This document shows positions 3,001-64,000 of a DNA stretch of 64,000 nucleotides, in pieces. The translations under genes and the position numbers were made by a program. Each line of letters opens with the position of its first letter. Position 1 is the first letter of the stretch. The stretch is taken from contig CM000429.1 in assembly GCA_000165345.1 (NCBI GenBank), positions 448,001-512,000 of the forward strand. The letters run 5' to 3'. The notes below the pieces were generated by a model, which worked only from the letters and a program-made list of their open reading frames with translations, had not been told where the DNA came from and did no database searches.

Positions 3001-4321
3001 TTTGTTATCTCACATTTGTCTTGAACTTCAAAGCGATAAATTACCATTATTTGTTGTTTGCCCAAATTCATATGGATACGGAGAAAATCAGTTTTATTTT
3101 GTTCCAAATCCAAGTCTTGGAAAAAAATTTACTTTCAATGACAGTTTTAAAGTTGAAAAAAACACAAATACTAATTTAAAAGATATAAATACCGAAAAAA
3201 AAATTAAATATGGTAATTCTGGAGGCTGCATAAAGTTGATTTACGATTCATTATATACATTCATTGGAAGATTAATGGGAATATCTATCAGAACTCAAAT
3301 TCCATTAAACCTAGATATACCTAATATTATTTGGAAATTAATATTGGGCGAGAGTGTTTCACTAAATGATTTGAAACAAATTGATTGGTATTCTGTTAAA
3401 TTCTATTTAAAGTTAAAACAAATAGAATGTAATTGGAAAAACAGCGATATTAAGGACAAGAGTAGAAAAGGATTAATACTGGAAGAGTTTGATTCACTTC
3501 AATTAAATTGGTCCTGTTTAAATATTAATGGTGAAGTCGTAGAATTAAAACTTGATGGAGAGAAAATACCCGTAAGAATAGATGAGCTCGGAAAATACTG
3601 TAATTTGTTCAAAGAATATAAGCTTGAGAGAGAATTTTTACATGCAACAAATAACATTAGGAAGGGGATTACGGAAATAATTCCTGAAAACATTTTAGAA
3701 TTACAAACTTGTGAAGAACTGGAAAGATTGATTTGCGGAAACCCCTCTTTGGATATCGATGAGTTAAAACAACATACAAAATATACTGGCTATTCTTCAA
3801 ATGACAAAATTATTAATTGGTTTTGGGATGTATTATCGGAATTGACAGTGCTTCAACAACAAATGTTTCTTAGGTTTGTATGGGGAAGAAGCAGACTTCC
3901 AAGCAAAGGAGCTCAGTGGGAGTGCAATATGGAAATAGTCAGAGTTTATGCTTCTGAAAACACAATTCATGGCGGGGGAACTATTGTTGAAAATATTGAT
4001 CGAATACCTAGTTTCTCCAATTTAAATTCAGAAGAGTTTGATTACATAGAAGATGAATTAGAACACGATAATGATCAATTGAACACTGAATTGATCGATC
4101 AAACGTATTTCAGGGAGCAATCAACTTCGAATATCACATCAGGAGATTTATCTGTACATGGAAATAAGGAAGATCATTTACTTCCTACTAGTCATACTTG
4201 TTTTTTCCAATTAGAATTACCCGGATACTCATCTAAAAAAATACTAAAGGAAAAATTATTGTATGCAATTACTGAAGGAGTTGCAATTGACATAGACAAT
4301 GTAGTACTTGATAATAATTAG
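2..4321 (+). CDS. HECT-domain E3 ubiquitin-protein ligase; 5'-partial at window edge, C-terminal HECT catalytic domain
   Basis: 1439-codon uninterrupted ORF running off the 5' edge. The C-terminal ~350 aa has HECT hallmarks (..LPSKGAQWECNMEIVRVYASE.., ..TCFFQLELPGYSSKKILKEKLLYAITEGV.. with the catalytic Cys in the 'HTCF' context near the C-terminus). Stop TAG at 4319-4321. Confidence 0.8.
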   Translation: MDNKLLLLPKNRLLWLNDQALKSTLSQFDQPIKILNNPILIDYSLKRVLTDEVIISKNVTFTSNDLVVLTTSTLDDTQDRVKLLWDILIHLKNKDDSKLLSNNVITWMEDWEDKFISTKVKDNDSFDPRIYVEYLNTYSFPKIKKKDILDSSKQHDKKTKFNSLLESQPIQLMREFFVKLYSESIFQRKYWPVFIGTIPICDLEPSNHYSSSSLDYNQRHSENKSICDSQSFVSNLREMNAPCSVSFWLFPINLDKYQDKFSISNNKKFEIYKNKINGDFEECNLFETKIFEYNKDGKWKLIAYRGITVSTISFWITDMGNLGIIVNSPNKNYPLNLMLNNNTANNHSQVSETLTFSSFIQNKSSAIEFHTTIIISNRKINLDQWNHITVTIGSEKKTENFSNSRIDNSYSVKLYINGLFDECKNIPTENIPLIGGDLPWIIGCHKYLRTDSLNNYVSQSAQDDSLIKEIPNIFLGQDISSSKLLRYLGSNKNYLKLVTGEPLFGLVANFIVIHFEWEIENIHDYIKKTFDEILFQDELDEMNNSEDLLNNSNPKIARTCSNSKFRNSSKYSKTLLHVFSNNWKNKPIVSHFNNIWQQEYINIKINSNKEVKTEEVNREKELLNISIPKIFMNNNIFNRKMHIKLDIVVLEKLEIISYEELIKKNRKTKRSMDKCSCKDSPIDTIVIIEKNNFEGSLFVLRLKYLNNLFSDLVLNKLKKELDAIFEREVRTPNNDSFSNNVNHNLNILHDTYSNHDIIKKFEHYCNFNSKNTNNIFIQKGSIAEYIENKQNTELEELENIQFNEISSKEVHEIIPSVGEYINFLFNEIKLSEPIFPILNDLKPSIFEEKVGCQNCKVVILNYLNICNTILKRISILFVSIFSFIEIVSPRPSIFKYSWLKMTRRYLSLSLKEVLINLCLTITEDSKADGKVRVAINRTKSIIRNKEILYFDDQFIFDSVFGQLYIILEKVPIYRLRCKKRPWYVIYEGEGGIDAGGIYRDLLSHICLELQSDKLPLFVVCPNSYGYGENQFYFVPNPSLGKKFTFNDSFKVEKNTNTNLKDINTEKKIKYGNSGGCIKLIYDSLYTFIGRLMGISIRTQIPLNLDIPNIIWKLILGESVSLNDLKQIDWYSVKFYLKLKQIECNWKNSDIKDKSRKGLILEEFDSLQLNWSCLNINGEVVELKLDGEKIPVRIDELGKYCNLFKEYKLEREFLHATNNIRKGITEIIPENILELQTCEELERLICGNPSLDIDELKQHTKYTGYSSNDKIINWFWDVLSELTVLQQQMFLRFVWGRSRLPSKGAQWECNMEIVRVYASENTIHGGGTIVENIDRIPSFSNLNSEEFDYIEDELEHDNDQLNTELIDQTYFREQSTSNITSGDLSVHGNKEDHLLPTSHTCFFQLELPGYSSKKILKEKLLYAITEGVAIDIDNVVLDNN

Positions 4322-4502
4322 GAGTAATATTGGTTACATAACTTACTTAAATATATTCAATTTTTTGAACAATTATTTAGCGCTACAATTTCTTTAATAT
4401 TTATTTTCAAATTGTATAACTGAATAATTGAGTTAATGAATTAATGGAAATAAACAAAGATTTGGAAGAGGAATAAGGAAATTGAAATCAAACTTAAATA
4501 TT

Positions 4503-6030
4503 ATGAATTCATTAGTACAAAACTCTCCTTTTTCATCAATGATGAACTTTACTTTTTTTGACCAAGCAAAAAAGATATTACAATCAGAAGAATCTAATAA
4601 ATTAGAAAAGTATAAAATTTGGAAGGAAAACACATCATTACTCTATGAAAATATAATGACTCATATTTTGGAGTGGCCATCACTATCAGTACAGTGGATG
4701 TGTGAAAGTAGTATTTCTGATGTTGAAAGCTTTTACTCTGATGAAGGTATAAACGAAACATCAAAGTATTCTTTGTTAACAGGCACCCATACATCAGGAA
4801 TGGACCAAGATTATATTATTATATTGGATGTTTTATTACCAAATTGCCCCATTCCAGAAAATTGTAGGAAATTCGATTCTCATAGCGATTATGCTGGCTT
4901 TACAATACCACATATGGAAGCTGACTCAAATAATTTTAGTCAAAGAATCCTAATTCCACACGATGGAGAAGTAAATCGAGTTGTTAGTTCTCCCATGAAT
5001 AGGAACATTATTGCATCCAAAACTGTGGTGGGCAATGTTAATATTTACGATTTAAATAGCTTAGTGGACGAAAAAATGGTTAAAGGAACTGTTAAAACTG
5101 AAAATAATCCATCATTAATTTTATGCGGTCATGAGTTAGAAGGTTGGGCTTTAAGTTGGAATAAAATTAAAGAGTCCTATTTGGCAAGCGGTTCGGATGA
5201 TAATGTTATTTGCTTATGGGATATTCAAAGTAAACCAAATAATTATGAAAGGAAATTAAAACCGATTCTTAAATTCATGGGGCATGAAAAAAGCGTTCAA
5301 GATATCTCATGGAATCCTTCAAATGAGAATATTATGATTTCAGTTGGAGATGATGGGTTAATAATGATTTGGGATATTCGTGAATCAGCCTCACCATGCT
5401 GCACTATAAAAACGTTAAAAGAACATTGTTCTGACAATACAAAAATTAACTTTAATTTTAAAAAGTCGGTTGGATATTCTTGTATTGGCCATTGTAGTAC
5501 AAATATTAATAGCCTTAACACAATTGAATTCAATCCATTTCAAACAAACATTATTGCTGTTGGAGGGAGCGACCCCGTGATAGCGATATTTGATATTAGA
5601 AACATGAGCAAACGACTTCACTCACTTAACGGGCATTCTGGACAAATAAATCGTTTAAGTTTCCTCTTAGAAAATGAGTCATTATTGGCATCTGCGTCTT
5701 CAGACTCTACAGTTTCGGTAAGTTTAATTTAAGATTAAATTTATAGACCTAATTACGATAAACTTTCAGATTTGGGATTTATCAAAAATTGGAATGGAAC
5801 AAAGACCTGATGAAGTTGAAGATGGTGTACCGGAGCTAATTTTTACTCATAGTGGGCATACTTCTCCAGTAATAGATTTGTCTTGCATGACTAACTATTT
5901 ACAGACGACTACATTTGCAAGTATAAGCGAAAACAATTATTTGCATATTTGGAGCCCAGGAGAAGCTATGTTTCTTTCAGATGATGAAGATGAAGAACTT
6001 GAAAGGATAAAAGATATCCAAGTTGAATAA
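4503..6030 (+). CDS. RbAp46/48 (MSI1/Hat2/CAF-1 p48) family WD40 histone-binding protein. Two exons: 4503..5717 and 5770..6030, with a 52-nt intron at 5718..5769.
   Basis: The N-terminus EKYKIWKENTSLLYENIMTHILEWPSLSVQWM matches the RbAp48 signature ([28 protein letters not shown].QWLP). Exon 1 ends ..SDSTVS|GTAAGT, and the intron ends ..ACTTTCAG. Exon 2 reads IWDLSKIGMEQRPDEVEDGVPELIFTHSGHTSPV.., matching the RbAp48 C-terminus (VWDLSKIGEEQ..EDGPPELLFIHGGHT). The ORF-track start at 4482 is a TTG; the first ATG is 4503. Confidence 0.8.
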
Positions 6031-6101
6031 ACGTACATTTTATTCAGAAAAATTACATCAGATTTTGCGGCAAATTGACATTTTTCAATTAGCAATGAAT
6101 T

Positions 6102-6659
6102 ATGGAGTACACGAATAGAAAGCTTTACGGAGGAGCAATAACATTAAATATCCCAAAGGAATTTGATGATATCAGTAATGTGAGAGATGTTCCTGATCAT
6201 CAAGAGGTTTTTGTTGATGGGTTTTCAGAAAGTAGTATAATTGTTGAAATTTTGGATCCTATTGATTTTGCTGGATGCAGGAACGTCGCAGAATATTATT
6301 TTATGGATATTTCTGAATTCAACAGTTCATTAGATACGAGAATAATATATTCTGAACCACTGTCTACGTATTCCAATGATTTAGAAATTTCCAAATGTTT
6401 TGGTAATCAGAAATTAGATAAGAGATATCCAGATGGAATTCGAAGAGAAGAATTAGAATTATATTTGCTAGTATTGAGAGTTGTCTCAAAGAAGGCTGAC
6501 ATTGTTATATCTTTCAACAATCCAACGGGATGTGCAGCTGTCAAAAAATCTTTGCATACAAACACCGACGATAGAAGACATACAGAAAAGGAAATAAGAG
6601 AAATTATGGACGAGATATTAAGGAGCTTCATAATAAAAGATTATAATCTATTCTTATAG
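6102..6659 (+). CDS. MOG1: Mog1/PsbP-fold Ran GTPase-binding protein
   Basis: 185 aa. LYGGAITLNIPKEFDDISNVRDVPDHQEVFVD and ..ADIVISFNNP.. parallel yeast Mog1 (LYGGAITTVVPPGFIDASTLREVPDTQEVYV ... TDVVISINVP). It starts only 71 bp after the upstream stop. Confidence 0.55.
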   Translation: MEYTNRKLYGGAITLNIPKEFDDISNVRDVPDHQEVFVDGFSESSIIVEILDPIDFAGCRNVAEYYFMDISEFNSSLDTRIIYSEPLSTYSNDLEISKCFGNQKLDKRYPDGIRREELELYLLVLRVVSKKADIVISFNNPTGCAAVKKSLHTNTDDRRHTEKEIREIMDEILRSFIIKDYNLFL

Positions 6660-6723
6660 AATATTATATTTACATTAGAACAAAATTTTAATATTACTTA
6701 TCTAAAGCTATAGTAGTAGCGGA

Positions 6724-7965
6724 TTAGTTATTATTACTTCCCCTTACATCGACTTTACAAAGTGGGCAGATTACAGACATCTTGAACCATTCCTTAATAC
6801 ACTGATGGTGAAAGATATGCTGACAGTCTAATCTAACCACAAAATCTCCTTCATTAACCTCGGATAAGCAAACTGTACACAGCGGAGCATCATCTGATGA
6901 ACTACAAGTTTCATTCCCTTCTCCATAATAATATGATTTTTGTGTTATTTTATTTACGATTTCATTATTTATCCCTCGGCTATTATTGGAGTCAGCAGAA
7001 CCAAATATTCGATCGACGTCTGAAGGAGGGAGGTGGGCGAGAGCCTGCAATATTGAAAATGGCCTGCTTCTAGGGGGAAGGCGTATTATATTTTCTAATA
7101 AGTGAACAGGAAGAAGGTCAACAATCGATGGTGTTAGACTGCCTTGGCAATAAATTGTTGTATTATCACCTATCCGAGCTTTTACACCAGCAGGATCTGT
7201 TGCAATTATTTTAAATTGAACACCATTGTATGTAAAGCTTTCCCCTTCTGAAAAAGGGTGGAATGTATATCTCGATAGGAATGGTTTGAGATAGTCTTGG
7301 AATATATCAAATGAATATGTTTGAGGCAAAGTATCTGAAAATGGCATTACATGAATTCTTTTAAATTCACCAAAACAATCCCAGTTAATGTAAACTGCTG
7401 TATTTCCGTCAATAACGCCAACTTGAGTTGGCTCGCATGCCCATACGAGAAATGTTATCCCATCTATTTCCACTTTTCTTCCAACATATATAGGTTCTTT
7501 CCTCTTTTTCTGAAAGTATGGCTCAATGTAAAGTCTACAGAGCTGATCACTTCCACATAGATTTTCAACTTCAGAATTTGACACTTCAATTTCCCTTTCA
7601 AATTCTCTTTGATCTTGCAATAACCTGTTTAGTCGAATAGTAGAAACCTTTTGTGCAAGAGGTGAAAGCGCAGCATTAAATGGAGGCAGTGCCAAGAAGT
7701 GCACTTTTTGTAACGACATTAATGGCTTACCATTTGCAAATACTTGAGTTGACTCAGATAATGCGCCCCCTTCTACTGGATCGCAAAACAACACAACAAA
7801 ATAATTCCTTTCATCAATATAAACTTTGTCGAACGGTTTCAATACTCTGTTTTCTACCTCATACTTCCGTAATACCTTAAGCAGAAGCTCGATGTCATGC
7901 TGTTCCTTCCATGGAAGTAATTGTATTCTTGATAGAACATTTTTCAATTGTTCACCAGAATCCAT
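6724..7965 (-). CDS. RING-H2 zinc-finger protein (probable E3 ligase) with an uncharacterised N-terminal domain
   Basis: 413 aa. The C-terminus CTVCLSEVNEGDFVVRLDCQHIFHHQCIKEWFKMSVICPLCKVDV is a canonical C3H2C3 RING-H2. ATG at 7965. Confidence 0.6.
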   Translation of the reverse strand: MDSGEQLKNVLSRIQLLPWKEQHDIELLLKVLRKYEVENRVLKPFDKVYIDERNYFVVLFCDPVEGGALSESTQVFANGKPLMSLQKVHFLALPPFNAALSPLAQKVSTIRLNRLLQDQREFEREIEVSNSEVENLCGSDQLCRLYIEPYFQKKRKEPIYVGRKVEIDGITFLVWACEPTQVGVIDGNTAVYINWDCFGEFKRIHVMPFSDTLPQTYSFDIFQDYLKPFLSRYTFHPFSEGESFTYNGVQFKIIATDPAGVKARIGDNTTIYCQGSLTPSIVDLLPVHLLENIIRLPPRSRPFSILQALAHLPPSDVDRIFGSADSNNSRGINNEIVNKITQKSYYYGEGNETCSSSDDAPLCTVCLSEVNEGDFVVRLDCQHIFHHQCIKEWFKMSVICPLCKVDVRGSNNN

Positions 7966-46064: not shown

Positions 46065-47222
46065 TCACTCAAACCTTTTCTTTTTTCTAGAATCAGTATG
46101 ATTTGACCTTTCCTCTTTTTTGCATAGTCTGCAAGTGCATGTAAAATGATAATTCTGGATAAGGCTTGTTCGTTCAGCCAATGGAAGAGTGTTATCAACA
46201 TATGAAATAGTTAGTTCCTCCCCCTTCATAATATCTCTATTTGTTGTAACATATATTGTGCTGTCATCTATAGTATATACATGGCAATTCGGGTCACAAC
46301 TATGGTTGAAACATGATTGTATTACGCATATACACGCACCTTTAATAATTCCAATTGTAGGTTCATTATCAGATATGTTTCTATTATCTAACTTACCTGA
46401 AAGATGAAGACCCCAAATATTTAATCCTTGTGAATTAAGGGTTAATTGACCAACTATTTGTTCAATTGTCTCCCTACTAAGTAGTGAATCAATGATAAAA
46501 CTATCAGAGAAAGAATCATTTATTTGATCGGAAAGTACGCTATGAATGCAATTTATAAGAGAATTGAAGTTAATTTCAGGGAACAATGCTGTAGTTGGGG
46601 CTACAAAGTTTTCCATTGATTTAGTTCCTAATTTATATGCATGATACAAATTTTCGTCTTTCATACCCAGTTCTTGCCAATAAAAATAAATATCTGCAGC
46701 CATTTGGGCAATGCAACGGGATACTGCTTCAGCTGTTATTGGAATATCCCCTAATTTATCTACGGATCTTTGGTAATTTCTTAAATTCAAAATACCCTTT
46801 GTACCATTGATATAATAGCCCCATCCACTCCTTAATGAAGAGGAATTTGGATCATAATCTTCAAAGTTAACTCCTGATATTTTTTTAAAACAAGATCTAC
46901 TGCAGATCTTTTTTTCTAATCCGAGCGTACTTAACGATAAAAAACCACTATTTTCAGGGTAATTAATCTTTAGGCAATTTTCGCAAAAAATCAGATTTTC
47001 TAGTTTAGCAAATGAAGTTTTAATTGGCCATGAAATGTAGGGTACTTCTTGGAAAAAATTTGTACCATCTGGAATCTCCTTGCTAGAGTGAATATGTTTT
47101 CCTTTATTTTCTGAATAGAAAATATCAAAATAATTCTCATTCCCTGTCAAGGAATTTATTTCATCCAATAAAATGTGGTAATTATTTTCGATTTCGCACT
47201 TTCCCTCAATACAGCTATCCAT
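46065..47222 (-). CDS. SET-domain lysine methyltransferase with an N-terminal MYND-like zinc finger (SMYD/SET5-like)
   Basis: 385 aa. C-terminal NHSCDPNCHVYTIDDSTIYVTTNRDIMKGEELTISY plus post-SET Cys cluster FTCTCRLCKKEE. N-terminal Cys-rich CENCLKINYPENSG...CSRSCFKK. Confidence 0.65.
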   Translation of the reverse strand: MDSCIEGKCEIENNYHILLDEINSLTGNENYFDIFYSENKGKHIHSSKEIPDGTNFFQEVPYISWPIKTSFAKLENLIFCENCLKINYPENSGFLSLSTLGLEKKICSRSCFKKISGVNFEDYDPNSSSLRSGWGYYINGTKGILNLRNYQRSVDKLGDIPITAEAVSRCIAQMAADIYFYWQELGMKDENLYHAYKLGTKSMENFVAPTTALFPEINFNSLINCIHSVLSDQINDSFSDSFIIDSLLSRETIEQIVGQLTLNSQGLNIWGLHLSGKLDNRNISDNEPTIGIIKGACICVIQSCFNHSCDPNCHVYTIDDSTIYVTTNRDIMKGEELTISYVDNTLPLAERTSLIQNYHFTCTCRLCKKEERSNHTDSRKKKRFE

Positions 47223-47336
47223 TATACTGAAATATAATTTTGATATAATGGACTAGTTATCAATTTTTTTTAGGATGTTACTGTTGACGAATAATTGGCG
47301 GTTTCTACAAATATTAAAAATACAATCACAGAAATA

Positions 47337-49118
47337 ATGAGTTTACAGAATTTTCCAATAATCCCCATCATTTTGCCTAAGATTGATGCTATATATAAGT
47401 TTAATAAAGTCTCTCCCTTTAATAAAAAACAGTTCAATGCCAGCCATTACAATAAACCATTTGAAAATGAGAGCAATAATAAAGGCATAATTAACAAACT
47501 AATCTATATAGAGAAACAACTTCCATATATTTTATTGGCCAGCTGCAAAGCTTCAGCCATACCTGTCAAAGACTTTAAGGAATCAATTGAGCGTTTTTTA
47601 ACGATTTCAAAAGATAGTGTTCAGTACTACCCAGTTATCAACGAAACAGATGATTATGTAAGGGTTAATATCAAACTTCAAAGCCATAATCTTGCAAAAA
47701 AAATCGGTCATTTCTTAGATATCATTAATCAAAGCTATTCTAATCTTCAGAGTTCAACGATTATTAACAATTGGGAGATTTATGATGGCAATAATGGGAA
47801 AAAAATTACTATTGAAATAAACTCCTTAGACAATAGAGGAACAATTTATATTCAAATTCCTGCAGATAAAAGCTCGCCTGCAAATTTAGAATATGTTAAA
47901 TCAAAAAATTCCTTATCCAAGAATGATTTGGAAGCTATCCACTTCCTTATGAAACCTGTAATCGGCAATGGTCATTTAGAAGAAACAAATTTAGAAAAGA
48001 ATTTATTAAATAAACGTTTATTTTTGGATAAAATCAAATCATTTGGTAATAAACAGACAGAAAAAGAAATAATCGATAACTTAGACCGATTATTTGACAG
48101 TTTCAGCAAGGACCTTTTTACCGATACTTTAATTGATTTAAATACTGTTTTGAGTTCTGCGGAAAATAAAGCAAAAAAATTTGATCAACATTCTAGGGAA
48201 TCAGATTTTTTAAATACAGATAGCAGCTCAAATATTTATCACGATGATAGTGTCATACCTTTATTGGAAAATTTGGGTGTGCAAGTGTTTTTAAATCGAG
48301 ATAATTGCGATTCACATAGAAATTTATGGGACTCTTTGGGAGGATATCAAGATGTTAAACGCCAAATCGAGGAACACATACTATTAAGTTTCAAATATCC
48401 AGATGTTCTTGATAAGATTGTTAATGGAACAAGGGCGCAAAGTAATTCAAACAACAGGCCTAAATTAATCTTATTTGAAGGTCCGCCAGGAACTGGTAAG
48501 ACAACTTCTGCTAAAATAATTGGTAATTCAATTCAAGTGCCTCTAATATATGTTTCGCTCGAAAATATTGTCTCAAAATGGTATGGGGAAAGTGAAACCA
48601 AGCTAGCTCAGATCTTCGATATTGCAAAAAAATTTAATGAAGGGTGTATAATATTTATTGATGAAATTGACACTTTGGCATCTTCAAGAGATAAAACGTT
48701 TAGTATGCATGAAGGTTCAAAAAAAATACTCTCTGTGTTATTGAGAAAGTTGGATGGTTTTGATACATTAAATTCAAAGACTCTCTTGATTTGCGCAACA
48801 AATCGTAGAAGAGATATTGATGAAGCGTTTCTAAATAGAGTTGATACAACTGTACTATTTAATCTACCGAATGAAAATGAAAGGGAACTGATTTTCAAAC
48901 AGTATGCAAAACATTTAACATTTGAAGAACGAATGGTGCTTGCGAAAATGTCAAAAAAGTTATCTGGAAGGTCAATTCGTCACGTTTGCCTAGAAGCAGA
49001 AAGGGAGTGGGCTTCCATGATTTTGAAAAAGAAAGAAAAAGGCGAATACCAACGGGATGAAATTGAGCTACCTACAATTGAGATCTATAAAGAAGCATTA
49101 AAAAAAAGGGTTAGCTAG
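47337..49118 (+). CDS. AAA+ ATPase (single C-terminal AAA domain, unique N-terminal region)
   Basis: About 593 aa from the first ATG (the track start at 47295 is a TTG). Walker A LFEGPPGTGKTTSAKIIG, Walker B CIIFIDEIDTLASSR, and a second region of homology ..LLICATNRRRDIDEAFLNRVD... Confidence 0.7.
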   Translation: MSLQNFPIIPIILPKIDAIYKFNKVSPFNKKQFNASHYNKPFENESNNKGIINKLIYIEKQLPYILLASCKASAIPVKDFKESIERFLTISKDSVQYYPVINETDDYVRVNIKLQSHNLAKKIGHFLDIINQSYSNLQSSTIINNWEIYDGNNGKKITIEINSLDNRGTIYIQIPADKSSPANLEYVKSKNSLSKNDLEAIHFLMKPVIGNGHLEETNLEKNLLNKRLFLDKIKSFGNKQTEKEIIDNLDRLFDSFSKDLFTDTLIDLNTVLSSAENKAKKFDQHSRESDFLNTDSSSNIYHDDSVIPLLENLGVQVFLNRDNCDSHRNLWDSLGGYQDVKRQIEEHILLSFKYPDVLDKIVNGTRAQSNSNNRPKLILFEGPPGTGKTTSAKIIGNSIQVPLIYVSLENIVSKWYGESETKLAQIFDIAKKFNEGCIIFIDEIDTLASSRDKTFSMHEGSKKILSVLLRKLDGFDTLNSKTLLICATNRRRDIDEAFLNRVDTTVLFNLPNENERELIFKQYAKHLTFEERMVLAKMSKKLSGRSIRHVCLEAEREWASMILKKKEKGEYQRDEIELPTIEIYKEALKKRVS

Positions 49119-49256
49119 GCTTTTCATATTTTGCAACCAAAATTAGTTTATATATTTCACTTATCTCGACCATCTTTTTGTTTTTTCCCTCTTTGCGCCA
49201 AAGTTATGTAAATAGGAAAATTATTATTTTAATAATTAATATGAAATTTAACTCCT

Positions 49257-52190
49257 ATGAATTTCAAGACAGCCTTATCTAGCTTTCCAACACTAATTGT
49301 TCTTCTGGTAATAAGTTGCTTCACTCTATTCACGTTTGCAAAATCTCATAGAATTAAAACATCTAACTCGATTAATTATAATTCAGAATTTCATTCAAAA
49401 GGGGGATCTACCGACCAAAATGTTATTTCTAAAATACCTAATCTTCGCCCATCGTCTGTAATTCAGGCAACAAATTTAAACCCCACTAATGGGCCTATTA
49501 ACTCAATAGTAAGGATATCTATACATGGAATAGGTTTTTCATTGTTTCCAAAATTATTTGTACATTTTGATGTAACTGAAGGCCCTTATGAAGTGGTGCC
49601 AGTTACTACAATTTCAGACACGTTGTTGGAGGTTGATACACCATCCAGTTTATCTTATGGTGAATCAGGTAAATCAGTTCTGGTTAGTGTATTTTCTCAT
49701 CCGGATATAATGCTTCAAAGTTCCAATGCATTAATATTCCGCTTTTATGAGGTACCAGTGATTACACTAATTTCTCCTAGCCATGCAGGAATGTCTGGAG
49801 GATCAGAAATAAAAATCTTTGGAACTGGTTTATTTGCATCTGATGATTTGAAGTGTCTCTTTCAAAGCAAAGAAAGATCTAAAATCGTAGATGCAACCTA
49901 CTCAATGAGTAAATTTGATACTTTGACTATGAAAAATTTTCTTCATGAAAATCATAATAAAAATATTCTTGAAAATAATTTACTTACTCAGTTAAACAAA
50001 AATTTATCAGAAGTTGAAATTAAAACCATATTAGACAATATTCAAAATCATAGTCCAATGCAATCAATAATTTGCGAGTCACCATCATGGACTGTATCAG
50101 AAACAGCATCTCTCTCGATCTCATTTAATGGAGTTCAGTATCACATATGTACTGATAGATTTACTTTTGAGGAGGAATCTTCTCTTTTTGGAAATGTTGC
50201 TCATGTAGTTAAAGAACGAGATAATCCTTCTGAGATTGTTTCAGAAGATGAAATTGAATTGAAAAATTCACAACAAAAAACGAATAACAACAAGATTGTC
50301 TCTTCTGAGATCATCTTGAGAAATTTTAACTCAAAATCGAGTTCACACTACAATAATCATAACCATCATATAAACGATTTACACAAGCATATTGATAACT
50401 CAGGCAATACATATACATTAAGTAATTCTTCTAACGCTTCTTTGTTACACAGTGATTATGGGCTTTTCTTAGAGATTGTCATTTTATTTTACTCATCATT
50501 TATCTTCGGCACTATTTGCAAGTTTATTGGGCTGCCACTGTTACTGGGATACATTATTGGCGGATATGTAGTTGGACCTTCTGGATTTGGTTATATATCG
50601 CAGCCAATCCAAATTATATCAATTTCACAAATTGGTGTGTGTCTGATTCTATTCACATTAGGACTTGAATTTTCTCTTAAGAGAGTCCTTTCAATAGGTA
50701 AATCGGTCATTTACTGTGCAGTTTCTTCAATATTAGTTTTCGTTTGTTTATGCAGTGCATATTCTATTTGGATTGGAACCCCAATAAATGAAGGAATTTT
50801 TATAGGGTCATATATATCAATGAGTTCAACTGCAGTTGTAATTTGCGAGCTACAAATTGAATCAAACGAAAGTATGGTTACAATTGGAATTTTAATATTA
50901 CAAGACTTGCTATTAGGAATTGTGCTTGCACTAATTCCAGCTTTACAAACTAATTCTGTTGAAAGTGTGTCTTCAAAAACTTCAAATACAAATTCTTTCA
51001 CAAATGTTTTTAACCAGACAAAGGTTTATCAACTAATGGTTTTTGTAACTCATTTTTGTTTGTTTTTATGGAAGATCATTAAACCCTTTATAATACTTTC
51101 GATATTTATTTTGATATCATTTATCGTAAAAATAATAATTTTTCCAGTCATTCTTTTTGTTCTCACGAAAACCAAAAGTCGCGAAATTATCCTGATCGGA
51201 ATTGTAAGTATTGTGCTTTGTATTTCATCATTAACTGAATATCTGGGACTTTCTATGGAAATGGGCTCGTTTGTTGGAGGAGTAATTCTCTCAAGTCTTT
51301 TTGGTGAAGAGGATACATATAACTTTAAACACGACTTTATTCAATCTATAGAGTCATTAAAATGGGTTTTTTCGATGCTATTTTTTACGAGTATTGGACT
51401 GGTTATTGATGCAACTTTCATTTGGGACAATTATTGGACGATTGGATATGTTTGTTTATTCATATCAATAATTAAATTCTTCGTAAACTTTCTAATATTC
51501 TTTGCATTTGGGCACATGATTAAATTATCTGCTTTTACATCCTTCATGCTAGCAAATTTAGGTGAATTTGGATTTGTGTTAGCGTCAAAGGGAATATCAC
51601 TTGGAATAATATCCAGAAAAGTCTACCTTATTCTTGTAGCAACTACTGTAATTTCGCTTTTATCTACCCCAATTATTCTTAGGATATTCTCTATCATTCT
51701 GAAAAGAAGGAATTCAAATATTCCATCAAATGAAAATAACTATAAAAAATTTAATGTTAAAAATAATGAAATCACCTCAATTAAACAGAAGTTCAATTTT
51801 TCATTAGGTAGCTCGTTCTATAATGCAAATAAAAGAAGAGCACTTAATATAACAAACATTATAAAAAATTTGGGTATTTTTAGTGGAAATAGTCACAGCT
51901 TAGATTCTTCAACAAAAGATTATAAATTTGATATATATATTAGAAATAATTATTTGAATTCTCGTTTTCAAGAGGACAGAATTTCATATTCAAATGTCTT
52001 TGAAAATTCAAGAGCTAATCCAAACATTGACTTCTCATTAAATGAAAATGAATTGGAAGATCTAAGTCAAGATGTTGTTTCTAATGAATCAAAGTTTGGG
52101 TGTAAAACTTCAAGTATTAGTTTAGAGAAAATAGACGAATTTACACTTGCTCATGTCACTAATTTGGGCAACTCGTCCTCAAAAATGTAG
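49257..52190 (+). CDS. Fusion protein: signal peptide plus tandem IPT/TIG-like extracellular domains fused to a Kef-type CPA2 cation/proton antiporter membrane domain
   Basis: 977 aa. N-terminal MNFKTALSSFPTLIVLLVISCFTLFTFA (signal/anchor). The IPT/TIG repeats: PTNGPINSIVRISIHGIGFSLFPKLFVHFDV.. and PVITLISPSHAGMSGGSEIKIFGTGLF. The CPA2 core: GLPLLLGYIIGGYVVGPSGFGYI..ISQIGVCLILFTLGLEFSL.. followed by about 10 more TM helices (..LQDLLLGIVLALIP.., ..GSFVGGVILSS..). Confidence 0.65.
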   Translation: MNFKTALSSFPTLIVLLVISCFTLFTFAKSHRIKTSNSINYNSEFHSKGGSTDQNVISKIPNLRPSSVIQATNLNPTNGPINSIVRISIHGIGFSLFPKLFVHFDVTEGPYEVVPVTTISDTLLEVDTPSSLSYGESGKSVLVSVFSHPDIMLQSSNALIFRFYEVPVITLISPSHAGMSGGSEIKIFGTGLFASDDLKCLFQSKERSKIVDATYSMSKFDTLTMKNFLHENHNKNILENNLLTQLNKNLSEVEIKTILDNIQNHSPMQSIICESPSWTVSETASLSISFNGVQYHICTDRFTFEEESSLFGNVAHVVKERDNPSEIVSEDEIELKNSQQKTNNNKIVSSEIILRNFNSKSSSHYNNHNHHINDLHKHIDNSGNTYTLSNSSNASLLHSDYGLFLEIVILFYSSFIFGTICKFIGLPLLLGYIIGGYVVGPSGFGYISQPIQIISISQIGVCLILFTLGLEFSLKRVLSIGKSVIYCAVSSILVFVCLCSAYSIWIGTPINEGIFIGSYISMSSTAVVICELQIESNESMVTIGILILQDLLLGIVLALIPALQTNSVESVSSKTSNTNSFTNVFNQTKVYQLMVFVTHFCLFLWKIIKPFIILSIFILISFIVKIIIFPVILFVLTKTKSREIILIGIVSIVLCISSLTEYLGLSMEMGSFVGGVILSSLFGEEDTYNFKHDFIQSIESLKWVFSMLFFTSIGLVIDATFIWDNYWTIGYVCLFISIIKFFVNFLIFFAFGHMIKLSAFTSFMLANLGEFGFVLASKGISLGIISRKVYLILVATTVISLLSTPIILRIFSIILKRRNSNIPSNENNYKKFNVKNNEITSIKQKFNFSLGSSFYNANKRRALNITNIIKNLGIFSGNSHSLDSSTKDYKFDIYIRNNYLNSRFQEDRISYSNVFENSRANPNIDFSLNENELEDLSQDVVSNESKFGCKTSSISLEKIDEFTLAHVTNLGNSSSKM

Positions 52191-52381: not shown

Positions 52382-53755
52382 ATGGATGACTTAAAAACCA
52401 TTGTTTTGAGACAAAATGAAATTCTAAAAAAACTAGAAACTGCATTATCAAATGCAATTATTAGAATTGAAAGCATTGAAAGGTATTGTAATAAGGATAA
52501 TAACAGCGTTGCGGATAATTTATCACTAATTTTGCCCAAAGAAACTGAGTACGGCCTAATAAAAAACAACTCTTGTAAATCAAAGGATCTAAATAAAGAA
52601 ATTGGCAATTTTGATTTTAATGCAGTTAATTCTGCTTTTAAATTAATTCCAATCGACTTTTTAAAAATGGATTTTAATAATCACCCTATTAATTTGATTA
52701 ATAATAGTAATGTTAAGAGTTCACATTTTATTAAGAATTTAAATAGTAATAAGTTTGTAGTTAACTCCAATTTTTATCATTCTGCTATAAACACAGATTT
52801 TGATCATCAACGACTAGAAGATTTATCAGAAAACATGTTTGATAATACATCCACAAATATTACTTCAAAACTACCAGAACTAAAAACTAATATCAAACCT
52901 GAAAATCAAGAGCTTGAAATTTTTTGGGAAGATAAAGAAAACAATTCTAATGCCTCAAATAACAATTTTAAACTTCAAACATGCATATGCGAGAATGAAT
53001 CAAAATCTGATGATAAAGAATTTTTTCCAAAAGAAACACTCAATTTTATAGCAAATAAGCTAGATATGTTTAATATGTTCTACAATGGAAACAAAAATCA
53101 CATTCTTTCTAACTGTATAGGAAAAAACGCACTAAATATTAAATCATCAAATAAACTATATATTTTTGACGAAGAAGATAATTCTAGTATGAGGCTTGAT
53201 GATCCTCTAGATTTAGAGATTGCAGAAAACGAATTTTACTACTTAAAGGGGCATATTAAAAGAAGTTCTACAAGAGATCGTCCTAGAAGCTCTAGTCTAG
53301 ATAACTGTCATCTCTTTAATTGTCTATATCCTAAAACAAGAGAGATCAAGAATAGCTGCGATAATATTGACAATTTAGAAGTTTATTCTAGCAATCAGCT
53401 AACCCCAGTAGATAACAGTTATTTAATAAGAGAAATAAAGTACCACAAGCCCTATGAAAAGATTGTAGGGTATGTACAAATTCCTTACAATGCATTTTTA
53501 AGCAGATCTTTTGAAAGTTCTGGTCACGATAAGATTAAGAACAAAACTCCTTTGAAAGAAGTAAATTATTTAGATTCGCGCAACGTACATAAAAAGATCA
53601 GAAGTCCTTACGAAGAACGTAATATTTTTTCAAGTAATATTTATCAATATAATAGGCAGATCGCCCATATTAAAGTTAACTGCCCCATTTTTTATCAATT
53701 TTTTTGTTTTCAACGATACCCTATTTTAATTTTAAGGCCGCTTTTCAGTAATTAA
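52382..53755 (+). CDS. Hypothetical protein (N-rich, low complexity)
   Basis: 457-aa ORF from an ATG with an N-terminal coiled-coil-like segment (MDDLKTIVLRQNEILKKLETALSNAIIRIESIERY). No domain recognised. Confidence 0.35.
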   Translation: MDDLKTIVLRQNEILKKLETALSNAIIRIESIERYCNKDNNSVADNLSLILPKETEYGLIKNNSCKSKDLNKEIGNFDFNAVNSAFKLIPIDFLKMDFNNHPINLINNSNVKSSHFIKNLNSNKFVVNSNFYHSAINTDFDHQRLEDLSENMFDNTSTNITSKLPELKTNIKPENQELEIFWEDKENNSNASNNNFKLQTCICENESKSDDKEFFPKETLNFIANKLDMFNMFYNGNKNHILSNCIGKNALNIKSSNKLYIFDEEDNSSMRLDDPLDLEIAENEFYYLKGHIKRSSTRDRPRSSSLDNCHLFNCLYPKTREIKNSCDNIDNLEVYSSNQLTPVDNSYLIREIKYHKPYEKIVGYVQIPYNAFLSRSFESSGHDKIKNKTPLKEVNYLDSRNVHKKIRSPYEERNIFSSNIYQYNRQIAHIKVNCPIFYQFFCFQRYPILILRPLFSN

Positions 53756-53807
53756 TAAAGAAATGTCTGGTAATAATGCTAAAGCTTCTCACAGATTGCT
53801 ACTAAGT

Positions 53808-54167
53808 TTATTTTTTGCCATTTTTTGGAAAAACTTTCTTTTGACCTATTTCCTTTGTTAATATTGATAAAAACACATCGTTATTAAACTTTTCAGTTCC
53901 TCTTCTAACCTTAAATGATTGTTCTTTCTCTGGAAGATTCGGCTCTTTTAGGGGAGGGGGGGTCTTTGATCTAAATCTAAAAATATGCTCGTTTATATTT
54001 TGTGGAGAAGACCTATTATGCTTCATAGTAATATCTTTCATGATGTGTTTCCAAAGTCTGTCGTTTTCATCGAGTATCTCTAGTGTATATAACGCAATTT
54101 TTTTGATTGCTTCATTTTGTTCATTAACCTTCTCCTCGAGATTACTTATTCTATCAACTAACAACAT
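53808..54167 (-). CDS. Hypothetical small coiled-coil protein
   Basis: About 119 aa from the first ATG (the track start at 54173 is a TTG): MLLVDRISNLEEKVNEQNEAIKKIALYTLEILDENDRLW... No family assigned. Confidence 0.3.
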   Translation of the reverse strand: MLLVDRISNLEEKVNEQNEAIKKIALYTLEILDENDRLWKHIMKDITMKHNRSSPQNINEHIFRFRSKTPPPLKEPNLPEKEQSFKVRRGTEKFNNDVFLSILTKEIGQKKVFPKNGKK

Positions 54168-54405
54168 ATTCAAGGACTTTATACAAATTAATTATTTTAT
54201 AGATCACATATAATTACTTATAACGAAAAATATGGATTAATTCTTTGTACTGGACCTATTTTTTCTTAATATTATTTCTAATGGCCGATAAATATAGCGC
54301 CTTAGAAAGCATGGCTCATTTTTACCACAATTTTGATATATTAATTAATATTTCAAATTGGAAACGCTTTGATTAATTTATTATATTTAAGAAACTAAAC
54401 ATTCT

Positions 54406-55047
54406 ATGGAAACCAATCCCGAAGAGAGTAACCAATTGGTTAATACAAGCGCTGAAGTAATTAGAACATACCTTAATAAAATTGTAACCAATGATAACTT
54501 GGATACACTTACACCGAAAAAAGTCAGAGAAGAGTTGGAAAAAGCTCTTGGGCTTCCTTTGGATAGCTTAAAGCCAAAAAAAAACCAAATAAATGACTTA
54601 ATAGACGCCATTATTTTAGAAATAAAAGAAAAAAATTCTACCGATTCCCCAATCGAGCAAATTACGAACAACGTATCAAATGTTGATTATAAAGACGAAG
54701 AAACCAATGCCAATAACGATGAGGAACATAACGACTTAAATATAAACATCCCAGAAATAACTAAACAAAATGGAAAAGCAACAAAGAGAAAGCAAATTTC
54801 GATGTCGATTGAGGAATTTCTAGAAAAATCCCAAACGCTAAGCCTAAGTATCAATGGTTCAAGCGAAAAACTTGCTATTTCTCCGAGACAATTTAGCACA
54901 GGAAGTGTTGGTTGGTACTACGGAGGCAAAGTCCCGCTTCCGGTTGGAGACGATTTGGAAGTCTTGTGTCAAATTTCAATCAATTGTACAGTAGTAGGTA
55001 GCAAAACGTGGTCCCAAAACATATCCAAAAAGTCGAAAATTAAATGA
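54406..55047 (+). CDS. DEK-C domain-containing protein (chromatin/transcription-associated), acidic middle and uncharacterised C-terminal domain
   Basis: 213 aa. N-terminal SAEVIRTYLNKIVTNDNLDTLTPKKVREELEKALGLPLDSLKPKKNQINDLIDAII fits the DEK C-terminal (DEK_C) helix bundle pattern. Followed by an acidic D/E/N-rich linker. Confidence 0.4.
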   Translation: METNPEESNQLVNTSAEVIRTYLNKIVTNDNLDTLTPKKVREELEKALGLPLDSLKPKKNQINDLIDAIILEIKEKNSTDSPIEQITNNVSNVDYKDEETNANNDEEHNDLNINIPEITKQNGKATKRKQISMSIEEFLEKSQTLSLSINGSSEKLAISPRQFSTGSVGWYYGGKVPLPVGDDLEVLCQISINCTVVGSKTWSQNISKKSKIK

Positions 55048-55065
55048 TATAATTCTAGTATTTTT

Positions 55066-56262
55066 TTATTCAAAATCAAACCTCCACAAAGCAATCTCTC
55101 CATCATCTCCTGCAGAAATAAATTCTCCTCTTTTATTGTCGTTTAACCAAGAAACTGAGTTTATTTCGCTGTTATGAGCATTTGGTCTTTCACAAATATG
55201 TTTTAATCTTTTTGAATCAGTAACGGAAAATAAATGTAGGCTTTTGTCTGCTGATGAAACAATGATACAATTAATATAATTACACCACTCAATTGAATAA
55301 ATAGGATAGCTATACAACTCTTTATCATAATTATTTATGAATGAATTTGCTTGGTCAATTTGAATATATTTTGAAAGCCTCTTTGTATTTGGTGTATTGT
55401 AAAAGATCATTTTAAAAGTATCAGTTAGTGCAAAGTTTACTGAGTTCAAATTTTTAAATTTATTTTCATTCCCTTGATTACTGTTCCACAGAACAATCGA
55501 GGAATCATCTGAACAAGATAAAAGAAATTCACCATTTGGACTATAAGTAAAATCCCAAACAGTTGAAGAATGCCCATTGAGCGTGTATAACTTAACCCAT
55601 TCTAAGCCTTTAACTTCATCATGGCCTAATAACTGAGAAGAAGGCGCCCAAGCAATTATTGTATTATCATACGAGCATGATAACAATACCATAGGAATAG
55701 TTGGATGCCACTTAATCTTCTTTATGTCATTTGTATGCGCAGTTACTACTCCAATACAATCATATTCTATAAGTGTTCCCAATTTTCTATTTTCGCCTAT
55801 ATCCAATGAAAAAAACCAAATTGCTCTATCTCTACAACAAGCAGCCACAAAATTATTAAAAGGACTCCAATCAACGCATTTTACTTCGCTTTCAGGACCA
55901 AGAATCTTGCAAATACAAGCCCATCCAATATCCCTAGATACAAATTCCCAAACTGAAATTGAGCTATCGAAACTCGCGGAAATGATCATGCCTCCGCATG
56001 GTGACCAAGCAATCTTTCTAATTAGTCTCTTATGTTCCAAACTTCCAAATTCGTAGGCTTTAACCCAACTATTTCCGGCCATAGAACATTTATTTACAAT
56101 TTCTATTTCTTGGTACCACTTGTGGTTTTTTAACTTTGTATCCATCCAGACAACTATGCTACTTCCGCATGATGCAATAATTCTATCCTTTGGATGAGAT
56201 GCTACGCTCCAAATGGCACTATCTAACACTCCGATAATTCCTAGCTTCTCCAAGGAGCCCAT
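55066..56262 (-). CDS. CIAO1: CIAO1 (cytosolic iron-sulfur assembly WD40 protein)
   Basis: About 398 aa from the first ATG (56262). ..IRKIAWSPCGGMIISASFDSSISVWEF...KCVDWSPFNNFVAACCRDRAIWFF...IKKIKWHPTIPMVLLSCSYDNTIIAW.. parallels human CIAO1 ([25 protein letters not shown]...[25 protein letters not shown]...[25 protein letters not shown]). The stop lies only 18 bp from the convergent upstream gene's stop. Confidence 0.75.
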   Translation of the reverse strand: MGSLEKLGIIGVLDSAIWSVASHPKDRIIASCGSSIVVWMDTKLKNHKWYQEIEIVNKCSMAGNSWVKAYEFGSLEHKRLIRKIAWSPCGGMIISASFDSSISVWEFVSRDIGWACICKILGPESEVKCVDWSPFNNFVAACCRDRAIWFFSLDIGENRKLGTLIEYDCIGVVTAHTNDIKKIKWHPTIPMVLLSCSYDNTIIAWAPSSQLLGHDEVKGLEWVKLYTLNGHSSTVWDFTYSPNGEFLLSCSDDSSIVLWNSNQGNENKFKNLNSVNFALTDTFKMIFYNTPNTKRLSKYIQIDQANSFINNYDKELYSYPIYSIEWCNYINCIIVSSADKSLHLFSVTDSKRLKHICERPNAHNSEINSVSWLNDNKRGEFISAGDDGEIALWRFDFE

Positions 56263-56778
56263 TAACAATAAATTTGAAAACTATATAAGCATATATATGT
56301 ATGCGCCAAAGAAGAATATGGAATTCAATTCAATGTAATTCTCATGATTTTCCTCATTGTTACGTATGGTTTGCATTTTTCGATAAAATTCCCTCAGTTT
56401 TTGCGCTAAAAATTTTCCACAAGTAGAATTACTATGTATTCTTGACTTTTTGATTGCTGGACAATTAACAAAGCATGAATTAAAATTGTTGATTAATTCT
56501 AATTTATTGTTGTGCTTTATATATAGCCCAAAAACTTTATATTTTAATCATCAATTCCTGCTTCAAATTTTTAAGTAATGAAACATTGAATTTCAACTGA
56601 AATTTTATATTTATCCTAGTTTCGAGTAGAAAATTTTATTTCATGATATAAATAACGCTATATTATTGTAATTTGAGACTTTTAAAAACTTTTTACTGCT
56701 CCTATCCTTAAATATTTTCACTTTTCAAACTTTTTATCGGTCCACGCCGCATTATTTGAAAATGAATAATTGAAGGAA

Positions 56779-63335: not shown

Positions 63336-64000
63336 ATTAAGTTTAAAATTCTAGGATGAATTAGAAATTCAAACAAAAATTTTGTGGTTTATATATAAAG
63401 GAAAGGGTTTTAGTATAAAACTAGAACTACCTTTTACTTTCTGTAGTTTATCTCCTTTATTCAGGTTATATTAAAATTTTTGCATGTTTAATTGCATTAT
63501 TTGGCGCTAATGTAATTTTATTTGACACGAAACTTAGGTCTCTAAAAACTTAATTTAAATAACTCTCGATTTCATTCAATAGATGAACAATTATGCCCAA
63601 ATATTAACCAATTTATAATACAAACTTAGTGGAATAAGATGCCTTTATCAAACTACCATAATGAAAGTATTAAAAATATTTGGTTTGGAAATTATTCTCG
63701 AAAAAATGGGCCTAGTCTAATAAAAAAAATCAATATTAATAAAAACACAATTTCATTCATTAAAACGGTATCTCAATTATTAATTATTGATATAATTTTT
63801 ATTATATCTAATATCTATATTAACAGATACATGCTTTCTTTTAAAAGCATTTTTATGTTGGCAATTAATATTCCAATAATATATTTATCTTTGTTTATTT
63901 CACAAAGATTAAATATTTGTTCCTCTGAATTTGTATCGAATCTGGAAAAAAAATTAAATTTTAATACGCTCGAGTCTGGGATTTCAAGTAACAAATTATT

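Follow-up and report, generated by a model that had tools for sequence, protein, structure and literature searches.

Does one gene of Cryptosporidium parvum place a pair of immunoglobulin-like domains in front of a Kef-type cation/proton exchanger, and if so, where did such a fusion arise and what might it do? The question is raised by a locus at positions 49257-52190 (plus strand) of the 64,000-nucleotide stretch analysed here (the window: assembly GCA_000165345.1, contig CM000429.1, positions 448,001 to 512,000). A first-pass annotation of this DNA read the locus as a single 977-residue open reading frame (ORF) in which a signal or anchor sequence and at least two IPT/TIG repeats run without a stop into a CPA2 antiporter core. 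Cryptosporidium, a major cause of childhood diarrhoea, has very few transporters and offers few drug targets. The gene, its name and both of its Pfam domains are already in public databases, and our literature search found no paper on this protein or mentioning the TIG fusion.

Overall, the locus is best explained as a gene for an electroneutral K+/H+ exchanger of the Kef/KEA kind within CPA2, with a TIG pair on the lumenal or outer side of the membrane and no KTN domain, and we consider this reading as a whole likely. Its ion selectivity, stoichiometry and membrane location, as well as the role of the TIG pair, are what we infer, and the evidence for each is weighed below.

One gene or two

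The window is AT-rich (about 30% GC), with long intron-free ORFs tightly packed. Here, as first read, the frame runs uninterrupted over 49257-52190 (the stop codon included in the coordinates); it opens at the first ATG past in-frame stops, and its product is identical to C. parvum EAK88387.1 / QOY43409.1. Over the whole protein, both families named in the first-pass annotation, PF01833 and PF00999, exceed their gathering cut-offs: Pfam TIG matches in two stretches with 35.2 bits (E 1.2e-08, cut-off 20.9), and Pfam Na_H_Exchanger matches aa 414-809 with 151.9 bits (E 2.9e-44, cut-off 26.2) over profile positions 4-370 of 375. Together with the alignment to PDB entries and the structural models described below, these matches confirm that a signal sequence, two IPT/TIG domains and a Kef-type CPA2 core lie in one protein.

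Between the halves lie about 95 residues of low complexity and predicted disorder, which might suggest that two adjacent in-frame genes, one for a secreted TIG protein and one for a CPA2 transporter, have been merged into one model, or that an intron or internal promoter lies near 50300-50450. We compared orthologous DNA from C. meleagridis, C. ubiquitum, C. canis and C. serpentis, estimating the ratio of nonsynonymous to synonymous substitution rates (dN/dS) by the Nei-Gojobori method. The linker (aa 327-379) is under purifying selection in this frame, with dN/dS of 0.13 against C. meleagridis and 0.10 against C. ubiquitum, values similar to those of the TIG domains and the core, and coding constraint spans the whole frame. 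Over aa 305-402 the two alternative frames are interrupted by 5 and 15 stops. The frame is open throughout in all five species with DNA compared (C. parvum and the four others), and all 10 of the further Cryptosporidium orthologs found are full-length. In addition, the C. parvum frame lacks any Met codon between residues 269 and 521; a separately made transporter would lose TM1-TM4 (TM, transmembrane helix) and no intact transporter-only product is available. E2F-type sites are absent from the ORF, and the one near the gene is upstream of 49257. The motifs that flank the linker are kept across lineages, and the search for homologs with the same fusion, which the first-pass annotation had proposed, found it in the 10 Cryptosporidium species, in the gregarine Gregarina sp. 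Poly1 and in a protein from a third lineage, P0179; the latter two are distant from Cryptosporidium. A mis-merged gene model was rejected on the coding constraint of the linker and the absent internal ATG; a gene-model artefact is very unlikely, with the faintest chance of any explanation weighed here.

The exchanger core

The assignment of the core to the Kef-type CPA2 exchangers holds by family, alignment and fold. In a phmmer search of the PDB, aa 406-813 align with residues 8-380 of KefC (8bxg), its entire membrane domain, with NapA next, and Foldseek with the full-length model likewise places KefC first (E 2.9e-14) and NapA second. The AlphaFold2 model of the core has a predicted local distance difference test score (pLDDT) of 70-92 and the NhaA-type fold with crossed broken helices, the helix breaks falling at 521-525 and 765-771; the number of TM helices by homology to KefC and NapA is 13, not the "about 12" of the first count. 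In NCBIfam the top ranks are CPA2, KefC, KefB and YbaL, all far below their cut-offs: TIGR00932 (2a37) scores 126 bits against a cut-off of 238.3, covering profile positions 2-275 of 275, and the KefB/KefC equivalogs score about 121 bits against cut-offs of 752 and 804. The full-profile coverage of TIGR00932 points to a divergent member of CPA2, not to a non-member; the protein is not a KefB/C equivalog.

In KefC, K+ is bound by Q155, D156, T127 and the carbonyl of S125, with S336 nearby; K307 braces the broken helices, and a QD rather than a DD motif is a mark of electroneutral K+/H+ exchangers (PMC11150392). By alignment, the C. parvum core has the features of Kef/KEA proteins, namely QD instead of DD, Ser/Thr residues at the TM5 break and the TM11 lysine (Table 1). 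Of six KefC K+-site residues, five are retained; the exception is S336, in whose place stands Gly769. Ser523-Ser524-Thr525 is invariant in all fused homologs and Gln549-Asp550 across the fused clade, Asp550 is invariant in all 51 aligned CPA2 proteins, and Glu770 is conserved at 90% or more over the same 51.

It is highly improbable, in our judgement, that the core exchanges Na+ or another cation for H+, or that it is a transport-dead membrane anchor for the TIG domains. Such a reading could draw on the names of orthologs, which include sodium/hydrogen exchanger and sodium:calcium exchanger, on the glycine that stands at the position of KefC S336, and on the missed KefB/KefC equivalog cut-offs. 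However, QD combined with Thr at the T127 position goes with K+ binding, whereas DD and Val are found in NapA; Asp550, an essential residue, never varies; and dN/dS in the core, 0.05-0.09 and among the lowest in the protein, is unlike that of a decayed transporter.

One part of the core evolves much faster than the others. The insertion in the extracytoplasmic TM6-TM7 loop is rich in Ser, Asn and Thr and disordered, with a proportion of nonsynonymous differences (pN) of 0.10-0.32. It is followed by an extra hydrophobic stretch at aa 590-608, which the model merges with TM7 into a 52-residue helix.

Leader, TIG pair and flanking motifs

The N-terminus of the protein looks like a signal peptide. 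The hydrophobic core of the leader is aa 10-28, FPTLIVLLVISCFTLFTFA, followed by KS, with a candidate cleavage site after TFA; hydropathy over these residues, the modelled helix and an equivalent leader in the gregarine homolog all agree with the signal or anchor start first proposed.

When the domains are scanned separately, TIG 1 (aa 60-165) scores 19.0 bits, slightly below the cut-off of 20.9, and TIG 2 (aa 166-308) is above it (Table 1). Among 1.84 billion representative proteins, a profile of the ectodomain picks out giant multi-TIG proteins with E-values as low as 1e-77, and many of these matches span TIG 1 plus the beginning of TIG 2. The ectodomain is modelled as an E-set immunoglobulin-like beta sandwich whose nearest known structures are IPT/TIG domains, with plexins and Met among the structural matches. 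Pfam, profile and modelled fold thus all support the claim of at least two IPT/TIG repeats. Both domains are under strong purifying selection (dN/dS 0.04-0.1).

Several further features of the ectodomain were observed. TIG 2 is split by an insertion of about 47 residues (aa 220-266, nt 49914-50054) with three predicted helices and a length and sequence that vary among species; such a helical interruption within an IPT/TIG sandwich is unusual, and its dN/dS is 0.21-0.27 versus about 0.1 in the strands. Three cysteines of TIG 2 (C200, C273 and C298, within the ectodomain at 49257-50468) are invariant within Cryptosporidium, P0179 keeps the C273 position only, and the gregarine protein keeps none of the three; the odd number leaves open an intermolecular disulfide. 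The nearest non-orthologous relatives of the ectodomain (P0071-P0115), from metagenomes and Sequence Read Archive (SRA) assemblies, are 2,000-7,800 aa long with 10-34 TIG repeats, and the TIG pair may have been recruited from such giant multi-TIG arrays.

Two motifs flank the linker, which itself matches no Pfam family. In the post-TIG motif, S309, L310, V314, A315 and R321 are also kept in the gregarine protein and P0179 (cross-lineage pattern SSL..VA....R), and dN/dS is 0.02-0.04. In the juxtamembrane motif, D380, N384, L388, S389 and D400 are invariant in all three lineages (pattern D...N..LS...........D); aa 380-402 have a dN of 0 against both C. meleagridis and C. ubiquitum, at a dS of 0.34-1.8 that is saturating. 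So extreme a conservation of both motifs suggests a functional link between ectodomain and transporter.

Topology and tail

KefC has 13 TM helices and a cytoplasmic C-terminal RCK domain (PMC11150392). Because this odd helix count with a cytoplasmic C-terminus places the N-terminus outside the cytoplasm, a signal peptide and ectodomain ahead of TM1 need no extra helix. A Lys/Arg-rich stretch past the last helix fits a cytoplasmic tail. By analogy with KefC, then, we infer that the TIG ectodomain is lumenal or extracellular and the tail cytoplasmic.

The tail, about 160 residues and predicted to be disordered, matches no Pfam family at E up to 10, and Pfam finds no KTN/RCK domain (TrkA_N, TrkA_C) anywhere in the protein. 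Fast-evolving otherwise, it is Asn/Ser-rich, as first described; that description omitted the 19-residue motif near the C-terminus, SISLE(K/N)IDEFTLAHVT(N/H)L. All 11 Cryptosporidium orthologs keep this motif with little or no change; neither the gregarine protein nor P0179 has it. The motif could be a sorting signal or a partner-binding peptide.

Distribution and origin of the fusion

The full-length orthologs in the 10 further Cryptosporidium species, which include intestinal and gastric parasites (C. serpentis among the latter), share 57-95% identity with the C. parvum protein, and public entries record both Pfam TIG and Na_H_Exchanger for 9 of the 10. The names given to orthologs are inconsistent (P0007, P0008, P0009, P0070): that of C. 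felis is "sodium:calcium exchanger", which is probably wrong, and those of C. xiaoi and C. ryanae are "hypothetical protein". The public entry for the ortholog of C. hominis TU502 is a 224-aa fragment.

Beyond the genus, an exhaustive ectodomain search yielded two proteins of less than 50% identity in which Pfam confirms both TIG and Na_H_Exchanger. The first, P0184, is EP01054_P002296 from EukProt, a 797-aa protein of Gregarina sp. Poly1. We take this EukProt entry to be a transcriptome assembly; if so, the gregarine protein derives from a single transcript. The second, P0179, has 1201 aa and is encoded on an 11.7-kb, gene-dense contig of 45% GC (L001, run SRR25454953); a homolog search queried with it returned P0179 alone. 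In that contig (positions 1-11736, Logan) the TIG-CPA2 gene occupies 3950-7555, beside CDC50, Isy1 and thioredoxin-like genes, and synteny with the window does not extend beyond the TIG-CPA2 gene itself. P0179 pairs with the gregarine protein in 82 of 100 bootstraps of the core tree, and the source of the contig may be a gregarine-like apicomplexan.

The order of parts is common to the three lineages: leader, TIG, TIG, post-TIG motif, linker, juxtamembrane motif and a QD-type core with FIWDN. In a neighbour-joining tree against 31 bacterial homologs, the cores of the fused proteins form one clade in 100 of 100 bootstraps; the outgroup is bacterial, without other eukaryotic CPA2 proteins, and the deep nodes are uninformative. 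The sampled sequences have, on this showing, a single origin of the fusion, which judging from sequence is old and eukaryotic, and it would have arisen once, ahead of the divergence of Cryptosporidium and gregarines.

The database name of the gene, "of possible bacterial origin", might suggest instead that Cryptosporidium recently took up a bacterial Kef gene, possibly one already fused to a TIG domain. The top visible non-orthologous matches are indeed bacterial, the best being a Synechococcales protein at 29% identity in a search of 5.8 billion proteins. Word-index searches with the full protein and with a mixed alignment yielded nothing beyond Cryptosporidium orthologs and KTN-bearing CPA2 proteins of bacteria, and both overlooked P0179 and the gregarine protein. 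However, the fused gene is shared with a gregarine and with the eukaryotic lineage of P0179, and all the cores fall in one clade, so any transfer predates Cryptosporidium. Moreover, the bacterial relatives have KTN/TrkA domains and no TIG domain, and the family-specific motifs were found in none of 185,579 prokaryotic species genomes. A metagenome scan gave a single locus, an ordinary bacterial CPA2 gene that starts at TM1, has no ectodomain and lies beside a D-Ala-D-Ala carboxypeptidase-like gene. The cyanobacterial derivation proposed for KTN-less eukaryotic exchangers (Chanroj et al., 2012; PMC3355601) would also imply an ancient origin. Recent horizontal transfer was rejected since the gene also occurs in gregarines, and we regard it as quite improbable. 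The database label can be corrected in that any bacterial or cyanobacterial origin is old, not an acquisition specific to Cryptosporidium.

Comparison with known exchangers

Throughout the membrane domain, the C. parvum protein has the 13-TM fold of KefC/KefB, the glutathione-gated K+/H+ exchangers of E. coli, and it keeps their QD motif, TM11 lysine and Ser-Ser-Thr residues at the crossover. There are also clear differences. It lacks the C-terminal KTN/RCK domain, so that gating by glutathione or nucleotides is not expected, it adds a signal peptide, two TIG domains, a linker and the extra TM6-TM7 loop, and it has Gly at the S336 position. Thermus NapA, a CPA2 Na+/H+ exchanger, has the same fold and is the second-best match in both structure and sequence; it differs in being electrogenic and Na+-selective, in having no extramembrane domains, and in its DD motif and Val, in place of QD and Thr here (PMC11150392).

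Eukaryotic Kef-like proteins fall into two clades: clade I (KEA1-3) has KTN, and clade II (plant KEA4-6 and TMCO3-type animal proteins) lacks it and carries at its N-terminus a hydrophilic domain, 157-235 residues long, with a signal peptide at its start (Chanroj et al., 2012; PMC3355601). With reference to the C. parvum genome, the same study names Apicomplexa among the groups with clade II genes, and it proposes a cyanobacterial origin for the KTN-less clade. KEA4-6 are described as endomembrane pH regulators (PMC11150392). With its signal peptide, hydrophilic N-terminal domain, CPA2 core and lack of KTN, the C. parvum protein matches the clade II/TMCO3 plan, a likeness drawn from the published clade description, not from a tree. 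Synechococcales as the source of the best bacterial match agrees with the proposed cyanobacterial origin, on which the deep nodes of our tree are uninformative. What differs is the N-terminal domain, an IPT/TIG beta-sandwich pair here, described only as a hydrophilic stretch in KEA4-6; the name TMCO3 refers to coiled-coil domains. The first-pass view that this architecture is unlike canonical KefB/NHX proteins is therefore right in one part, as the TIG pair is specific to the present proteins, and overstated in another, as the KEA4-6/TMCO3 plan was already known and apicomplexan members were reported in 2012 (PMC3355601).

P0184 and P0179 have the same part order and belong to the same clade as the C. 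parvum protein. Their core identity is 27-32%, both lack the Cryptosporidium loop insertion and C-terminal motif, and P0179 has long insertions inside and after its TIG domains. The CNNM metal transporters and the anthrax toxin receptor have immunoglobulin-like ectodomains that resemble the TIG pair in fold only, and their membrane domains are unrelated.

Proposed function

We suggest that the gene encodes one type-I-like membrane protein whose signal peptide would route the N-terminus into the secretory pathway, so that the two tandem IPT/TIG domains would be lumenal or extracellular. The 13-TM core would act like that of KefC, by an elevator-type swap of one K+ per H+ at the Ser-Ser-Thr / Gln-Asp site, and the cytoplasmic KTN/RCK gate would be absent. 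Since the plan is shared with the KTN-less eukaryotic group, a K+-coupled proton leak is the most likely activity, and this leak may control pH and K+ levels within a secretory or endosomal compartment; a location in the plasma membrane is the alternative. The TIG pair, together with the two motifs before TM1, would most likely have a structural or regulatory role on the outer side of a homodimer, where it may stabilise the dimer or dock onto the transporter; a role as receptor for an external ligand is less likely. By analogy, the pair possibly stabilises the dimer or serves as a gate, the KTN gate being missing.

Some points weigh against this picture. The nearest visible non-orthologous matches are bacterial and KTN-bearing, and the replacement of KefC S336 by Gly769 means that the K+ site is not identical. 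The ectodomain models are of moderate confidence only (mean pLDDT about 60), and the idea of dimerisation through the TIG pair draws on analogy with IPT/TIG domains that dimerise.

The first-pass annotation had instead proposed ligand- or adhesion-coupled regulation of ion exchange. Spelled out, this would be a sensor or adhesin-coupled exchanger in the parasite plasma membrane or at the host interface, in which a host or parasite ligand of the TIG pair gates K+/H+ exchange. TIG domains do occur in receptors such as plexins and Met, a dN of 0 in the juxtamembrane motif is what would be expected if a signal passes to the core, and the absence of the KTN gate of bacterial relatives would call for other regulation. 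However, the TIG domains are under strong purifying selection and are common to parasites of very different hosts, including gregarines of invertebrates, which together argue mildly against a host-specific ligand, and the related KTN-less eukaryotic exchangers are described as endomembrane proteins (PMC11150392). We consider this proposal rather unlikely, and ligand- or adhesion-coupled regulation of exchange is at present unsupported speculation. A bolder version, that the TIG pair and juxtamembrane motif form a lumenal or extracellular gate in place of the cytoplasmic KTN gate, so that K+/H+ exchange is switched from outside the cytoplasm, strikes us as improbable; its candidate signals would be a lumenal or host-derived ligand, pH or a rearrangement of the dimer. 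If true, Cryptosporidium and gregarines would regulate CPA2 exchange in a way of their own, which might offer a parasite-specific drug target.

For the preferred reading, a K+/H+ exchanger with a structural or regulatory TIG module, the interest is more modest. A predicted exchanger is conserved throughout the genus with an ectodomain seen only in the Cryptosporidium/gregarine-type clade and in no bacterial relative examined; should the protein turn out to be essential, its ectodomain would offer an accessible, parasite-specific handle. In transporter biology, the protein is a natural case in which the cytoplasmic KTN gate is missing and an immunoglobulin-like module sits on the opposite face, and it could help to explain the poorly understood lumenal N-terminal domains of KEA4-6 and TMCO3. 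No unusual mechanism is shown, and the gene is a lead for experiments, not a discovery.

Features, upstream site and gene neighbourhood

Table 1. Features of the TIG-CPA2 gene and its surroundings, in window coordinates.
Feature	Residues	Position	Strand	Basis or remark
E2F-type site TTTGGCGC, candidate promoter element		49195..49202	-	55 bp upstream of start codon, within 138-bp intergenic spacer
Complete TIG-CPA2 gene	977 aa	49257..52190	+	identity to EAK88387.1; no in-frame stops in 5 species
Signal peptide or signal anchor	1-28	49257..49340	+	hydropathy peak 2.29; model helix 2-25; similar gregarine leader
IPT/TIG domain 1	67-165	49455..49751	+	
IPT/TIG domain 2	166-304	49752..50168	+	Pfam TIG 33.4 bits; beta strands flank three helices in models
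Post-TIG motif EEESSLFGNVAHVVKERDNPSE	305-326	50169..50234	+	almost invariant in 11 Cryptosporidium sequences
Low-complexity linker	327-379	50235..50393	+	predicted disordered, coding; pLDDT <40
Juxtamembrane motif DNSGNTYTLSNSSNASLLHSDYG, immediately ahead of TM1	380-402	50394..50462	+	cross-lineage invariance
CPA2 (Kef-type) core, 13 TM helices by homology	403-815	50463..51701	+	Pfam, phmmer, Foldseek
Ser523-Ser524-Thr525, TM5a/b break	523-525	50823..50831	+	align with KefC K+-site S125-S126-T127
Gln549-Asp550, "QD" ion-binding motif	549-550	50901..50906	+	align with KefC Q155-D156 (TM6)
Cryptosporidium-specific insertion, TM6-TM7 extracytoplasmic loop	564-590	50946..51026	+	absent from KefC, gregarine protein and P0179
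Lys740, TM11	740	51474..51476	+	aligns with KefC K307 (NapA K305); invariant in fused clade
Glu770, TM12 break	770	51564..51566	+	aligns with KefC E337
Asn/Ser/Lys-rich tail	816-952	51702..52112	+	pLDDT about 30; dN/dS 0.10-0.21
Invariant C-terminal motif SISLEKIDEFTLAHVTNLG	953-971	52113..52169	+	11 Cryptosporidium orthologs
Conserved-order neighbours of TIG-CPA2 gene		46065-49118 and 52382-56268		comparison with C. serpentis

The gene starts 138 bp downstream of a gene for an AAA ATPase. The E2F-type site in the spacer between them is kept by C. meleagridis and C. canis; in C. ubiquitum it is degenerate. The window holds three copies of TTTGGCGC against 0.9 expected, which is not significant, as 9 of 100 shuffles reach three. 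The other two copies lie at 56303-56310 and 63500-63507, the former preceding the start of the minus-strand ORF at 55066-56268 by about 35 bp.

Gene order around the locus is kept between C. parvum and the distant gastric species C. serpentis (L003), in the sequence SET/MYND, AAA ATPase, TIG-CPA2, an unknown 457-aa protein, DEK_C and WD40.

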